Below, piece by piece: positions 22,463-37,207 of a stretch of DNA of 64,000 nucleotides. Origin of the DNA: an uncultured Gemmatimonadota bacterium (GTDB lineage Bacteria; Gemmatimonadota; Gemmatimonadetes; Palauibacterales; Palauibacteraceae). Both the position numbers and the translations under genes were made by a program. Below the pieces are notes generated by a model, which was given only the letters and a program-made list of their open reading frames with translations, was not told where the DNA came from and searched no databases. The stretch is taken from positions 15,507-79,506 of the forward strand of contig CAZSKS010000007.1 in the NCBI GenBank assembly GCA_964607465.1, read 5' to 3'. Every line of letters starts with the position of its first letter. Within the stretch, counting starts at the first letter, position 1.

Positions 22463-22639
22463 GCCGTACGGCGATCCATGCGAAGGCGAGGAAGACGTCG
22501 CACCGACCGTGGACGATCGGCCGACTGGCACGTCTCACCGGATGGACAGGGGATGGACAGGGCGCCGAAGGGAGCAGGGAACGGCGCCGGGAAAAGTGGG
22601 CCGGGCTGGATTTGAACCAGCGGCCTCACGCTTATCAGG
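22463..22639 (-). repeat. Direct repeat copy A: 134-bp arm + 3' 43 nt of tRNA-Ile (distal att-like site)
   Basis: Base-for-base identical to 37031-37207 (offset 14568). The tRNA part is 22597-22639. It lacks the tRNA 5' half. Confidence 0.9.
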
Positions 22640-22932
22640 AACGTGACGGCCCCGGGAATCCTGCATCCTGCAGCACATCCACCGATCGAGCGTGCGATCT
22701 GCCGCGGATTCCCGCCCTGGGGCTGCAGCCTGCAGACGGGCGCTGACAGTACTTGACGGTATTCCCCGGCTCCGTCGTTCGGGCCCAGGTTCGCACTCCC
22801 AGGCGACCGGAACCTCGGTTCGATGTCGGAATCCGAATTTGTTGGGGGGCGCGCGAGCGATCAGGATTACGGTTGACGGGCAAGCGCCGGACCTCATTCC
22901 CATGGCCGCTCATTGCCGCCGGATACTGCACC

Positions 22933-24672
22933 CTACGGCTGACCTGCTTCCTGATGGACGCCTCCGCGCCTGAGGGCCCGGCCCGGAAAGGCGCCGGTAT
23001 GCTCTCCGTCGCGTAGCACCTGTTCCCCGTTCACGAACACATGCTTCACGCCACTGGCGTACTGGTGCGGCTCAGCGTACGTGGCGTGGTCCTGAATCGT
23101 GCCAGAATCGAACACGACGATGTCGGCGAAGCGACCGGGTTGGATGCGTCCGCGATCGGTCAGCTTGAACTGATCCGCAGGCAACGAAGTCATGCGACGG
23201 ATGGCCTCCGGCAGCGACAGAACGCCTTCAACGCGGACGAACTGACCGAGAACGCGAGCGAACGTCCCATAGCCGCGAGGATGGACTCGGGACTCCAGGA
23301 ACCGACCTTCGGCCGCCACCGACGGTTCGTCGGATCCGAAGAACACCCACGGTTGCTCCAGCTTCTTTCGGACGTTTTTCTCGGACATCAGGAAGAAGAC
23401 GGTCTGGACCGGGCTTCTGTCTTCACGGACCAGATCGAGGATCGTGGTTTGGGGGTCCGTGCCCCGCTCTCCCGCGACGTCAGCCAGCGTCCGCCCCTGG
23501 AGCCCCTTCAGCCGCTCCGTGCGGAAGTCGACGAGGAGCACGTCGTCGGGAGTGCCCGACAGCTGGCAGTAGTTCTCCCATTCGTCCTGCTGGCGGCGCA
23601 TATCCGCGATCATTCGACGGCGGGCCTCGGGATCATCGAGCCGTCGATACAGGGAGTCCGGCCCTCCCTCGTGGGCCCAGGGAGGGATACATGCCGACAG
23701 GCCGGTGGAACCCGCCCGGTAGGGATACATCGTGGCTGTCAGGTCCATGCCCCGAGACCTGTGGCTCTCTACCAATGACAGAACGGAGTCCAGCTTCGGC
23801 CAGTTCTGGATTCCAGCTGCCTTGAGATGGTAGATCGTGGCCCCGGCACCCGTTCTGTCCGCAATCTCGAGGAGCTCTCTCACGGCGGGAATCAGGTCGG
23901 CACCCTCGCTCCGAACATGAGAGATATACCGCCCTCCAAGTCTGGCGGCCGACCGCGCCAGGGCGGTTAGCTCACGAGTCGTAGCATAGCTGGCCGGGGC
24001 GTATGCGAGGCGACTTCCGACCCCCAGAGCTCCCGCCTCCATGGCATCTTGCACCAGCTCCCGCATCCGGTCGAGCTCGTCGTCCGTCGGGCGCCGGTCC
24101 TCGTCACCCAGCACATGCTGTCGGATCGTGGTGGCCCCGACGAAGGAGGCAACGTTGGGCGTCACCCCTCGTTCCTCCAGGTGCTCCAGATGCCCCCTCA
24201 GGGTCGTCCAGTCGATGTTGTAGCCCGGAGGCGGATAGTCCCGGTCGGCAGAGGTCTCCAATCGCCGCCGGAGCTCCTCGTTCAAGGGCCCCATCGTAAT
24301 GCCCTCGCCGAACACCTCGGTGGTCACGCCTTGCTTCAGGTCGCTCATCGAGCGACCGTCACGCAACAGGCTGCCTGTCGCCCAGCTGTGAGCGTTGATG
24401 AATCCGGGAGCGACGGCCAGGCCGGAGACGTCGAGGCTCAATGTCCCCCGCGATGGATCGATGTCGCCGACGGCCGCAATCCGATCGCCGTCGATCGCGA
24501 CGTCGACGATCCGCCCCTCGGCCCCCGTCCCGTCGAACACCGTACCTCCGTACAGCACCACATCGAAGACATGATCGCCCTGTGGCTCGCCCGCGCAGCC
24601 GGCGGCAAGCATCGTGGCGAGGAGAAGAGGGACCAAGGGCAACCGTCGGCTGGCGCCGGATCTCACGATCAT
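22933..24672 (-). CDS. N-acyl-D-amino-acid deacylase (D-aminoacylase) family amidohydrolase, lipoprotein
   Basis: 579 aa. Lipobox 'LLLATMLAAGC'. N-terminus 'DVVLYGGTVFDGTG...IAAVGD...APGFINAHSW' is typical of the family. Confidence 0.8.
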   Translation of the reverse strand: MIVRSGASRRLPLVPLLLATMLAAGCAGEPQGDHVFDVVLYGGTVFDGTGAEGRIVDVAIDGDRIAAVGDIDPSRGTLSLDVSGLAVAPGFINAHSWATGSLLRDGRSMSDLKQGVTTEVFGEGITMGPLNEELRRRLETSADRDYPPPGYNIDWTTLRGHLEHLEERGVTPNVASFVGATTIRQHVLGDEDRRPTDDELDRMRELVQDAMEAGALGVGSRLAYAPASYATTRELTALARSAARLGGRYISHVRSEGADLIPAVRELLEIADRTGAGATIYHLKAAGIQNWPKLDSVLSLVESHRSRGMDLTATMYPYRAGSTGLSACIPPWAHEGGPDSLYRRLDDPEARRRMIADMRRQQDEWENYCQLSGTPDDVLLVDFRTERLKGLQGRTLADVAGERGTDPQTTILDLVREDRSPVQTVFFLMSEKNVRKKLEQPWVFFGSDEPSVAAEGRFLESRVHPRGYGTFARVLGQFVRVEGVLSLPEAIRRMTSLPADQFKLTDRGRIQPGRFADIVVFDSGTIQDHATYAEPHQYASGVKHVFVNGEQVLRDGEHTGAFPGRALRRGGVHQEAGQP

Positions 24673-25031
24673 CAGGGAGAGCGGTCGTCGGGATCGTGAG
24701 GACGAAGCGGCATGTCATGGGCCTCGCTCAACGTCGACGTCTTCGTTTTCGGACCAGGGAGCGGGCCGAAGCGTCGACTCGATCGGGAAGCGCGATGACC
24801 AAAACCCCTTCTTCGGTGTCCCTGCGGACCAGTGTCACGGAGGATGGTGGCTTCGAATGGGTCGACTGCAGCCGCCACGAGGACCCGATGCGCTCTTCGA
24901 CCCGCAGGAGCGATCTGGCTGAAGCCAACGAATACCCCGACATGGTCATCGCCCTCGCGATCGGGGAAATTGCCCTGGCGACTCTTCTGGCGAGGAATGA
25001 AGTGCGTGGTCTCGCAGCGGAGAGCCGTCAC
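24672..25031 (-). CDS. Hypothetical 119-codon ORF bridging the operon gap (doubtful)
   Basis: The GTG start overlaps the upstream stop (GTGA). Its TGA overlaps the downstream ATG (TGATG). The product has no recognisable motif and is Arg/Pro-rich. Confidence 0.25.
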   Translation of the reverse strand: MTALRCETTHFIPRQKSRQGNFPDREGDDHVGVFVGFSQIAPAGRRAHRVLVAAAVDPFEATILRDTGPQGHRRRGFGHRASRSSRRFGPLPGPKTKTSTLSEAHDMPLRPHDPDDRSP

Positions 25032-26116
25032 GTTGCGGGCCGGGCTCCCCAGGCTGCGCCGAGAACTCTCTGAACGTTGCCCCCGAGAATCCCCCGCACT
25101 TCGGTGGCGCTGTACCCTCCTGCGTCAAGTAGCTGGGCCAGCCGTTCGAACGTGGGCCCTCGTCCCGTGAGCGGCTCCGGATAGTCGTAGGGCGCACGCG
25201 GCAGCGGATCCGTCTCGAACCGGATCAGGCGCCTGTCGTCGAAGTCGAGGCCGATCCCCACATGCTGAGGGCCAATGCGACCGGCGACATGGTCGACATG
25301 GCGAAGGAGGTCCTCCGACGACGGACGCTGATCGCTCAAGAAGGCTGGAAACGCCGTGACGCAGACGACCCCCCCGGTCTCGCCACAGGCATCGATCTGT
25401 TGATCCGTGAGGTTGCGCGGGTGGTCGTGAACCGCCGAAGCGTTGGAGTGAGTGAAAATGACGGGATGCCGCGACACCGCCATCGCCTCGAGGCTGCTAC
25501 GGCGTCCCACCCGCGACAGGTCGAGGAGGACACCAGCTTCGTTTAGAGACTCCACTGCCATCCGACCGAGCTCCGTCAGCGGCAGGTCACTGGCCTCGAA
25601 ACAACCGTCCCCGTTCCAGTTCTTCCAGGCGTGCGTCAAGGCGATGACGCCGACCCCGGCCGCCCCGAACGTTCGTACGAGATCAAGAGCCTCGACGATC
25701 ATCTCCATGCCCTGAAAGGTCGGGACAACTCCGACGCTTTCTCCGTCCCCGACAAGATCGAGGTCCCCTGGCTCCTTCAGCCAGAGCACGTCCTCGCGTC
25801 CCACCAGCAGCTCACGAAGCCGCAGCAGATTCCGCACGGTCGCCTCGAATCCGTCGATTTCCGCCACCGGCACGAACGCGACGTCCACCCCGCTCCCGAC
25901 GAGCGCGTCGAGGCTCCGGCCCGCCGTCTCCATTCCGCGCGCGGGCGAGGCAAGGGGCACCGCCGTGTTGATCCGAAGCGGTCCGGACACCCCTGAGTCG
26001 CCAACATCTGGATCACGCTGCTCGGCGGTCTCCCACATCGGGCCCAGCAGTCCGCCGGTCGCGAGACCCGTCAGCTGGAGGAACGTGCGGCGAGACAGTC
26101 CGGAAGGCAGGCTCAC
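25028..26116 (-). CDS. M19 (renal dipeptidase)-like protein with a Tat signal
   Basis: ORF 25028..26263. Start placed at GTG 26116 (GTGA overlap). Twin-arginine 'SRRTFLQLTGLATGG'. 'VIFTHSNASAVHDHPRNLTDQQI' and 'GIGLDFDD' are M19-like. Confidence 0.7.
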   Translation of the reverse strand: MSLPSGLSRRTFLQLTGLATGGLLGPMWETAEQRDPDVGDSGVSGPLRINTAVPLASPARGMETAGRSLDALVGSGVDVAFVPVAEIDGFEATVRNLLRLRELLVGREDVLWLKEPGDLDLVGDGESVGVVPTFQGMEMIVEALDLVRTFGAAGVGVIALTHAWKNWNGDGCFEASDLPLTELGRMAVESLNEAGVLLDLSRVGRRSSLEAMAVSRHPVIFTHSNASAVHDHPRNLTDQQIDACGETGGVVCVTAFPAFLSDQRPSSEDLLRHVDHVAGRIGPQHVGIGLDFDDRRLIRFETDPLPRAPYDYPEPLTGRGPTFERLAQLLDAGGYSATEVRGILGGNVQRVLGAAWGARPAT

Positions 26117-36613: not shown

Positions 36614-36686
36614 ACTCGACGCACTCCCGCTGAAGAGTTGCTCGTGCTCGCGTGTCCTCATCGACCTTGAGGATATCGAACACTGA

Positions 36687-36702
36687 ATATCAGATACGAA
36701 GC
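36687..36702 (-). promoter_or_regulatory. Candidate operator site 3 (GCTTCGTATCTGATAT on the minus strand)
   Basis: Matches site 1 at 12/16 positions (TTCGTATC.GA.AT). Lies 26-74 nt upstream of the proline dehydrogenase start. Confidence 0.35.
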
Positions 36703-37030
36703 GCACGGGCAACTCTGTCGTGTGTCAGATCCCCCACGGGCGGACACGACGACCACGCCGGCGATATGTACGAGGAGCAGGGGGCAGTCCTGTCGGACCT
36801 TACGTGGCGGACACGCGATCGATCGGCCGGACGTCGCATTCGATGACGAGGTGCGGACCGTCCTGCGGGATCGGAGCGTACCCGCCCCGTCACCGGGAGC
36901 CGACACCCTCGAGGTCGATGGCGGCCACTTCAACACTGTGCGCCGGGAACGTCACAACGCCGAAGTGAAGAACAACAACTGCATAGCCCAAAGGCTGTCC
37001 CGTCCGTCTTGCCTGACGCACGCCGGTCTG

Positions 37031-37207
37031 GCCGTACGGCGATCCATGCGAAGGCGAGGAAGACGTCGCACCGACCGTGGACGATCGGCCGACTGGCACG
37101 TCTCACCGGATGGACAGGGGATGGACAGGGCGCCGAAGGGAGCAGGGAACGGCGCCGGGAAAAGTGGGCCGGGCTGGATTTGAACCAGCGGCCTCACGCT
37201 TATCAGG
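37031..37207 (-). repeat. Direct repeat copy B: 134-bp arm + 3' 43 nt of the intact tRNA-Ile (proximal att-like site)
   Basis: Identical to 22463-22639. Overlaps tRNA-Ile positions 33-75. Confidence 0.9.

Follow-up and report, generated by a model that had tools for sequence, protein, structure and literature searches.

What is the 14.4-kb segment that abuts a tRNA gene in a 64,000-nucleotide stretch of DNA from an uncultured Gemmatimonadota bacterium (contig CAZSKS010000007.1 of assembly GCA_964607465.1), where did it come from, and which enzyme put it there? The segment in question, here called the island (22640-37030), lies between two copies of a direct repeat next to the gene for tRNA-Ile(GAU); by the window we mean the whole 64-kb stretch. 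The answer we favour, with somewhat more conviction than doubt, is that the island is a horizontally acquired, non-autonomous element resembling a cis-mobilizable element (CIME), inserted at the anticodon loop of tRNA-Ile(GAU) by an integrase acting in trans. Judged by its sequence, it appears to have been the last to join a series of integrase-less islets that stand in tandem at this tRNA gene.

The copies of the repeat, at 22463-22639 and 37031-37207, are 177 bp long, 100% identical and in direct orientation with an offset of 14568; the match extends to 181 bp at 99% identity. Since the second-longest direct repeat within 20 kb measures just 36 nt at 75%, the 177-bp repeat is far beyond chance. 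The right copy (R_R) overlaps an intact tRNA-Ile(GAU) gene on the minus strand (37164-37239 by ARAGORN, which called it GAT; 37165-37239 by Rfam, 74.4 bits), the anchor of the array and the single tRNA gene of the window according to both programs. The tRNA part of the repeat runs from raw position 33, the last base of the 5' strand of the anticodon stem, to the 3' end (43 nt), and both copies also include the 134 bp found downstream of the tRNA 3' end (d134). In the left copy (R_L), d134 occupies 22463-22596 and the 43 nt of the tRNA-Ile 3' part occupy 22597-22639. We treat R_L as the attR-side copy and R_R, which includes the last 43 nt of the functional tRNA gene, as the attL-side copy. Within the tRNA, the boundary of the repeat is 1 nt short of the anticodon loop, on its 5' side. 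Crossover by integrases in tRNA genes takes place at three classes of sublocation, namely the anticodon loop, the T-loop and the 3' end (10.1101/2020.11.02.365908), and the block of identity here starts at the first of these. A first-pass annotation, made from the sequence alone, had described the perfect repeat and its offset, the intact minus-strand tRNA-Ile(GAU) at the right copy, and a left copy composed of the tRNA from position 33 onward and the same 134 bp. Sequence comparison, together with ARAGORN and Rfam, bears out this description on each point.

The bracketed 14.4 kb is inserted foreign DNA. Overall GC content is 0.634 in the island interior, compared to 0.75 at 1-14000 and 0.718 at 37240-64000, and GC content at third codon positions (GC3) is 0.70-0.80 in the island versus 0.83-0.98 in the flank genes. 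Deviating base composition of this kind is a mark of islands at tRNA genes. The site without its insert is seen in L001, the closest species-representative metagenome-assembled genome (MAG), whose TypA is 82% identical to that of the window. (All relatives compared are MAGs or metagenome contigs; TypA, dnaE and their neighbours are closest to those of Gemmatimonadota MAGs.) Gene order in L001 is dnaE, DUF4837, typA, a lipoprotein gene, tRNA-Ile, 95 bp, and then a MocR homologue (79.5% amino-acid identity) that runs to the contig end. In the window, the MocR-like gene lies 14.7 kb from tRNA-Ile. We take L001 to be an empty site: no more than 95 bp separate its tRNA-Ile from the MocR homologue, and the lipoprotein, typA and dnaE genes of the window recur on the other side. 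The tRNA-Ile gene adjoins a lipoprotein gene and typA in L004, L006 and L089 as well as in L001. The insertion at tRNA-Ile and the lower interior GC, the latter judged by eye in the first-pass annotation, have thus both held up, with the tRNA-side edge now placed at the anticodon loop.

Just inside the left repeat copy lies a conserved distal arm of ~130 bp, E_L (22640-22775). It holds GACGGCCCCGGGAATC...CCGATCGA...GATCTGCCG.GGATTCCCGCCC, then a direct repeat of the TGACAG type, and is a putative P arm of attP. An nhmmer profile finds E_L with E-values of 4e-38 to 3.5e-39 in the window, in the Logan contig L087 and in two copies in the JGI contig L089, and with an E-value of 3.8e-11 at the end of L081; the L089 copies are 81-88% identical to window 22640-22775. 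In five modules (window 22640, window 15424, L089 2786, L089 3983 and L087), the core gives way to E_L at one and the same nucleotide (..TCAGG|A..). The E_L-bearing modules hold three unrelated cargoes: the catabolic locus of the island, a HigB/HTH_3 toxin-antitoxin pair, and a set consisting of GerE, a Zn-peptidase and RelB/YafQ. Two tandem islets lie to the left of the tRNA in L089, one with GerE, three hypothetical proteins, the Zn-peptidase and RelB/YafQ, the other with the HigB/HTH_3 pair only, and in each of them the distal E_L is directly preceded by a tRNA-Ile 3' fragment ending in CACGCTTATCAGG or a near copy of it. L087 carries the same HigBA islet as L089 (89% nucleotide identity), adjoining MocR. 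An nhmmer profile of d134 matches L089 next to the tRNA (9525-9628, E=1e-16) and again next to an internal tRNA fragment (3785-3913, E=1e-22), so the islets are flanked by a proximal arm joined to the 3' part of the tRNA. These proximal-arm and tRNA copies are diverged and old in L089, and identical in the window.

Could E_L be conserved as a structured RNA, or as a hairpin like that of attC? Compensatory changes were found in 0 of 28 predicted pairs, and z-scores for DNA folding range from -0.66 to +0.64, which is nothing unusual. With no covariation and folding z-scores near 0, we rule out both possibilities. Conservation of E_L is most simply read as that of a protein-binding sequence, which would fit an attP arm.

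An older unit of the same family lies further out in the window. A degenerate tRNA-Ile 3' fragment (tfrag0; 15366-15423, minus strand), with an insertion of ~22 nt in the T-loop region, forms its outer end and is followed by a remnant of E_L (15424-15475) comprising approximately the first 51 nt (profile positions 1-51, E=1.5e-7 by nhmmer). A combined profile of fragment and arm scores E=1.6e-31 over 15366-15475. Because the degenerate fragment and the E_L remnant mark this boundary, we regard 15.5-22.4 kb as the older unit. Its cargo (15476-22430), by Pfam and NCBIfam, consists of two DinB proteins, a HAD-PhzF protein, a pyridoxal-phosphate (PLP) decarboxylase and a MocR/EhuR-like regulator (21042-22430, plus strand), with an intermediate GC content of 0.689. 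The block formed by MocR and the decarboxylase is conserved beside the site in L001 and L085-L088.

With these sister units in view, two statements of the first-pass annotation need revision. It had taken the repeat for an unusually long att core. The repeat does extend beyond the tRNA; however, it is not one core but a 43-nt tRNA part plus a 134-bp arm that is homologous to the arms of sister islets. The footprint of site-specific type that the annotation recognised at the tRNA stands, whereas the island is not the isolated element it appeared to be, but the most recent member of an array with a conserved distal arm.

Two further features of the islets deserve mention. A homologous T-loop insertion of ~22-25 nt is common to three old fragments (window 15366-15475, L089 2733-2785 and L089 3915-3982), one example being GATTTG[GTGACCGCAGGGAACCTCAGTTCAC]CAGCGG, and would not be expected in a displaced native fragment. 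Two explanations suggest themselves: modules of fragment plus E_L may move, or be copied, as one piece, or crossover may also take place at another sublocation, the T loop. Small islets at the tRNA in relatives are also rich in toxin-antitoxin pairs, HigB/HTH_3 and RelB/YafQ (L089 2948-3620 and 8982-9524; L087 3710-4334), and one 1.2-kb islet is a toxin-antitoxin pair alone, set between E_L and the proximal arm. Such pairs may stabilise the array, or make the cell addicted to it.

Comparison of relatives points to high turnover at the tRNA-Ile site. L089, which shows ~95% nucleotide identity to the window in typA and 89% over the stretch from tRNA to lipoprotein gene, carries different islets at the same tRNA-Ile. 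The DNA that follows MocR also varies among the relatives found through the MocR protein (L085, L086, L088, L092 and L093): an S8 peptidase and large proteins in L086, hydrolases in L088, small regulators in L092 and L093, and unrelated sequence in L085. As post-MocR DNA differs in this way, the interval between tRNA-Ile and MocR can be called hypervariable. A sister of the island itself is present on Logan contigs L081-L083, with 85% nucleotide identity over window 36764-22692, the same nine genes and no integrase. These contigs stop inside E_L on one side and, on the other, at about the boundary between the repeat and E_R, the tRNA-proximal non-coding end of the island (36713-37030); position 267 of L081 aligns to 36764, so its position 1 maps to ~37030. 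A 17.9-kb JGI contig, which holds P0265, carries a sister island as well. That an island 85% identical to ours also has no integrase implies that the integrase was missing long before the event that gave the mismatch-free repeat.

We searched for genes that could mobilise the island. Pfam detects no integrase, excisionase, transposase or transfer gene among the nine cargo genes, and ten leftover open reading frames (ORFs) of the island have no Pfam match even at E=0.1, in keeping with what had been noted from the sequence alone. An integrase gene inside the island, usually next to the tRNA, is another mark of tRNA islands and is absent here. The 30 other well-supported window genes that were scanned include no recombinase, and no integrase was found next to tRNA-Ile in the more distant relatives L004 and L006. 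A scan of a viral collection with the E_L pattern came back empty; the same scan of a metagenome collection was also empty, but that collection lacks the L087 and L089 samples (the pattern matches both directly), and hence this result says little. When phage and plasmid databases were queried with the repeat and E_L, the sole match was a tRNA in a Bacillus plasmid.

We inspected the junctions by comparing them, in fixed register, to the 13-mer core CACGCTTATCAGG; 4 or fewer mismatches to it occur at 7.1e-4 of window positions. A core-like 13-mer, CACGCCGGTCTGG (37019-37031), with 4/13 mismatches, sits exactly at the junction of E_R and the right repeat. On the other side of the island, a spacer of 32 bp (s32, 22431-22462) separates the MocR stop codon from the left repeat; its right end is weakly core-like, with 6/13 mismatches. 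The left flank of L087 is 96% identical to the window over 193 nt, including the 32-bp post-MocR spacer. There, the spacer abuts E_L and the 177-bp unit is exactly absent, and the spacer ends in CACGCTTCCTTGG, which has 4/13 mismatches to the core and is in register with E_L. Both edges of the 177-bp unit, then, appear to behave as junctions. A scan for promoters and terminators around the right repeat found none.

The part of the repeat outside the tRNA contains a tandem 11-mer, GGATGGACAGG x2 (22540-22561 and 37108-37129). E_L, at its inner end, and the proximal arm of L089 have TGACAG-like direct repeats too. These may be arm-type binding sites, with weak statistics and differing spacing. 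As a phased motif this candidate was rejected: beyond the two repeat copies, the strict pattern matches a single site, in the cargo, the E_L copies being spaced differently, and it is retained as a lead only. We also dropped a by-eye likeness between the start of L081 and d134, which local alignment with shuffles did not find significant.

How might the island have arrived? Our starting point is what can be read directly from the sequences: an insertion of foreign composition, an empty site in a relative, no recombinase, conserved arms in arrays, and an identical junction nucleotide. On the plus strand, each unit would consist of a tRNA-like 3' fragment ending in the anticodon-loop core, then E_L, cargo and the tRNA-proximal arm, and the 177 bp would represent the 43 nt of the tRNA 3' part together with the 134-bp tRNA-proximal arm of the family. 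This arm would already have been resident downstream of the tRNA when a circle bearing the same arm integrated. Recombination would have occurred at the anticodon loop with a tyrosine-type integrase as catalyst, its gene lying either on a helper element or at another place in the genome. Site-specific recombination is favoured because fragment and E_L meet at one exact nucleotide, at a classic sublocation, with arms on both sides and with tandem accretion of units. As no unit has an integrase, the enzyme would have to act in trans.

Perfect identity of the repeat copies would, on this account, reflect a very recent event within one population. A recent date is plausible, given that L089, which is 5% diverged in typA, does not have the island. 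In one conceivable route, the island and the adjacent 177 bp were excised between two core-like sites and then re-integrated into an empty chromosome of the same population; such excision at alternative sites would explain the perfect identity too. Alternatively, homologous arms could have been made identical by later gene conversion.

Several observations weigh against this account. First, neither the 64-kb window nor any of the five islets examined has yielded a recombinase, which makes the trans-acting integrase hypothetical, and none of the 93 fetched loci is an autonomous relative that shares E_L or the att site. Second, of the four junctions, one classical integration accounts for three only; the fourth, where s32 meets the left repeat, would need either a pre-existing cargo-less unit (tRNA, d134, spacer, MocR; compare the empty site of L001) or excision at an alternative site. 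Third, likenesses seen by eye between the end of s32 or E_R and the tRNA, and between the start of d134 and that of E_L, were not significant in local alignment with shuffles, and the TGACAG-type direct repeats are only suggestive of arm motifs. Finally, the assembled sequence fits the integrated form and a free circle alike.

Homologous recombination might have done the work instead, a possibility we consider unlikely but worth weighing. A circle or merodiploid copy that already had the 177 bp would have crossed over inside the repeat by a RecA-type Campbell integration or cassette shuffling; in its general form, this explanation makes E_L and d134 with the tRNA fragment portable homology arms exchanged between relatives, with no dedicated integrase active today. 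The repeat is perfectly identical and long enough for RecA, and the absence of an integrase from every islet is what one would expect. Left neighbours of the HigBA islet differ between L087 and L089, as would easily result from recombination between E_L copies that are 80-88% identical. However, the identity must pre-exist, and how the circle acquired it is left unexplained. In addition, every module joins tRNA fragment and E_L at one exact nucleotide of the anticodon loop, the signature of site-specific breakage, and core-like 13-mers lie on other junctions. These data argue for site-specific recombination over exchange between homologous arms.

A more ambitious version of the site-specific account, which we hold only as a tentative conjecture of low probability, makes the tRNA-Ile locus in this Gemmatimonadota clade a gene-capture platform, at which one chromosomal recombinase shuffles recombinase-less cassettes of 177 bp to 14 kb. 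A core resembling the anticodon stem-loop and a conserved ~130-bp arm would delimit each cassette; the system would be integron-like in function, but with duplex att sites of the tRNA type. The 177-bp repeat would then be a minimal cassette between two cores, which would explain both its exact absence in L087 and the core-like 13-mer at its outer edge. An integron cassette array proper was rejected: such arrays adjoin an intI integrase and attI, whereas no recombinase was found beside this array within the window, and E_L lacks the hairpin folding of attC.

Could the island be out of place in the assembly? The source sequence is one NCBI contig of 81.7 kb, and the relatives, as stated, are MAGs or metagenome contigs. 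A free circle (excised or plasmid-like, with an attP that includes the 177 bp) may have existed beside empty-site chromosomes, the two being threaded together by the assembler, or the contig may be a mis-join. At 177 bp, the repeat exceeds usual k-mer and read lengths, and the de Bruijn graph would be the same for an empty site plus a circle as for the integrated form. Contigs of the sister island break at both boundaries, as such ambiguity would predict. Against this, the junctions of tRNA fragment with E_L and of E_R with d134 need real reads either way, such that the element and its att structure stay real. Moreover, the architecture of fragment plus E_L is seen integrated in independent assemblies (JGI for L089, Logan for L087) and in the window remnant at 15366. 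We consider an assembly artefact improbable.

We likewise assign small probability to decay of an autonomous element, in which an integrative and conjugative element (ICE), an integrative and mobilizable element (IME) or a prophage with its own integrase lost its mobility genes by later deletion. This is the standard proposed origin of CIMEs (PMC5704250), and the att-like repeats have been kept. The island, however, is compact, with non-coding ends of 293 and 318 bp and no pseudogene remnants, and since the 85%-identical sister has the same nine genes and boundaries and also lacks an integrase, any such loss predates the event that gave the repeat without a mismatch. The remaining explanation, that the 177 bp is a target-site duplication left by a transposition-like insertion at a staggered cut, is very unlikely: an exact target duplication does flank the insert, but there is no transposase and there are no terminal inverted repeats, the duplication is far longer than any target-site duplication known to us, E_L in L087 is joined to its flank without any duplication, and the corresponding repeats of L089 include element-type arms.

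Having considered how non-autonomous integration in trans compares with these alternatives, we turn to what the island carries. Eight of its nine genes lie on the minus strand. From the left end, these are an amidohydrolase (22933-24672, minus; Pfam Amidohydro_3, 1.8e-21; NCBIfam amidohydrolase family); two M19 membrane dipeptidases (25028-26263 and 26113-27117, from the longest possible starts, minus; Pfam Peptidase_M19, 3.5e-64 and 1.1e-69); an enzyme of the proline racemase / 4-hydroxyproline epimerase family (27114-28166, minus; Pfam Pro_racemase, 1.8e-49), for which the best NCBIfam match, 4-hydroxyproline epimerase, is under the curated cut-off; and an S15 X-Pro dipeptidyl-peptidase / CocE-NonD hydrolase (28171-30003, minus; Pfam Peptidase_S15 and PepX_C; TIGR00976, 414 bits). 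They are followed by a SusD-like lipoprotein (30037-31287, minus; Pfam SusD_RagB) and a SusC/RagA-type TonB-dependent transporter (31359-34397, minus; Pfam; TIGR04056, 408 bits against a cut-off of 368), a pair whose homologues are from Gemmatimonadota. A GntR/FCD regulator (35010-35693, plus; Pfam GntR and FCD) and a proline dehydrogenase (35705-36712, minus; Pfam Pro_dh, 1.6e-37; NCBIfam ProDh_Thermus, 271 bits, below cut-off) complete the set. Apart from the two ends, the non-coding DNA of the island is confined to one gap of 355 bp and one divergent promoter region of 612 bp.

Taken together, these predicted functions describe a coherent locus for the uptake and breakdown of proline/hydroxyproline-rich peptides. 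The cargo has the features of a SusC/SusD-type utilisation locus: adjacent transporter and lipoprotein, degradative enzymes, and a regulator. Its adjacent SusC/RagA transporter and SusD lipoprotein, accompanied by hydrolases and a regulator, recall the polysaccharide-utilisation loci of the Fibrobacterota-Chlorobiota-Bacteroidota (FCB) group, but the enzymes here are peptidases and enzymes of proline/hydroxyproline catabolism rather than carbohydrate-active enzymes (CAZymes).

The cargo core has a distant homologue at L090 10001-18870, on a 4.5-Mb ENA contig (ctg362374), made up of SusC (57% identity), SusD, S15, M19 and M19. It lies in a non-tRNA context, adjoins an HTH_32 protein of the transposase-associated kind, and is without the proline dehydrogenase, GntR, epimerase and amidohydrolase genes of the island. 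Since this non-island core holds only SusC, SusD, S15 and the two M19 genes, the island looks like an older operon to which genes were added. Within the window, but outside the repeat-bounded island, a second SusC/SusD-like pair (58787-61954 and 57397-58776) adjoins an M28 peptidase (55679-57328). GC content over 55679-61954 is 0.67-0.71, somewhat under the 0.72-0.75 of the core genome. Peptide-type SusC/SusD loci are therefore present outside the island as well, and the island adds one specialised for proline and hydroxyproline.

Of the known systems, CIMEs come closest. They keep attL and attR, lack integration and transfer genes, and accrete at tRNA genes or at other 3' gene ends (PMC5704250). 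As in CIMEs related to ICESt1 of Streptococcus thermophilus and in Streptomyces pathogenicity islands, the island has attL and attR and no integration or transfer genes. It also shares its target gene with further units, decayed or non-autonomous, in a tandem arrangement; this accretion is visible in the window remnant at 15366-15475 and in the two-islet array of L089. Composite excision between non-adjacent att sites, the route by which CIMEs are proposed to capture neighbouring DNA, has its counterpart in the excision considered above. There are differences: no cognate ICE or IME bearing an integrase was found for the island among the 93 fetched loci; all five islet units are without a recombinase, and share a ~130-bp arm despite unrelated cargo; and the repeat is 177 bp and perfect, in a host of the phylum Gemmatimonadota.

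The tycheposon islands of Prochlorococcus are similar in that older elements are displaced outward as new ones integrate at a tRNA, with partial tRNA copies left between them, and in their nutrient-acquisition cargo and degenerate remnants (10.1101/2020.12.28.424599). What defines a tycheposon is a tyrosine recombinase of its own together with replication modules (10.1101/2020.12.28.424599). Pfam finds neither a recombinase nor a replication module in the island, and we rejected this assignment. The ssrA-specific islands of Dehalococcoides reportedly stand in tandem, separated by direct repeats of ~20 bp of the gene's 3' end, and are said to include a site-specific integration module, in contrast to the 177-bp repeat and the lack of any visible integrase in the present case. 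What the two have in common is islands of catabolic or respiratory genes at a single-copy t(m)RNA gene (PMC3146451).

The conserved core flank on the far side of the tRNA comprises the lipoprotein gene (37543-38292, plus strand) and typA (38839 to ~40794, minus strand). The longest ORF of typA (38839-41334) extends ~180 codons upstream of the conserved start. Inside its GTPase domain, TypA has a Gly/Ala/Pro-rich low-complexity insertion of ~45 amino acids (..GAAEGARDAAPAGGGGGAPGGAAPGPGPGG..), such that 231 residues are matched to a profile of 188 positions. In L004, whose TypA is 70% identical, the intact tRNA-Ile is followed, 7.5 kb downstream, by a 43-nt match to tRNA-Ile positions 14-56 (L004 15147-15189, 95% identity), with glycosyltransferase and methyltransferase genes in between; this may be another tRNA-bounded island.

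What is unusual about the present locus is the combination of an array made up entirely of integrase-less units, a well-conserved 130-bp arm, a perfect composite repeat of 177 bp, and a Gemmatimonadota host. To our knowledge, this abundant soil phylum has very few cultured members, and its mobile elements have barely been described. Pipelines that find islands by their integrases would miss all five units seen here. Our comparisons suggest that a whole pathway for acquiring proline/hydroxyproline-rich peptides moves as one unit between lineages of different GC content, into a tRNA hot spot. Should a trans-acting integrase come to light, a simple, testable system for the spread of metabolic islands in Gemmatimonadota would be defined by E_L and the core.

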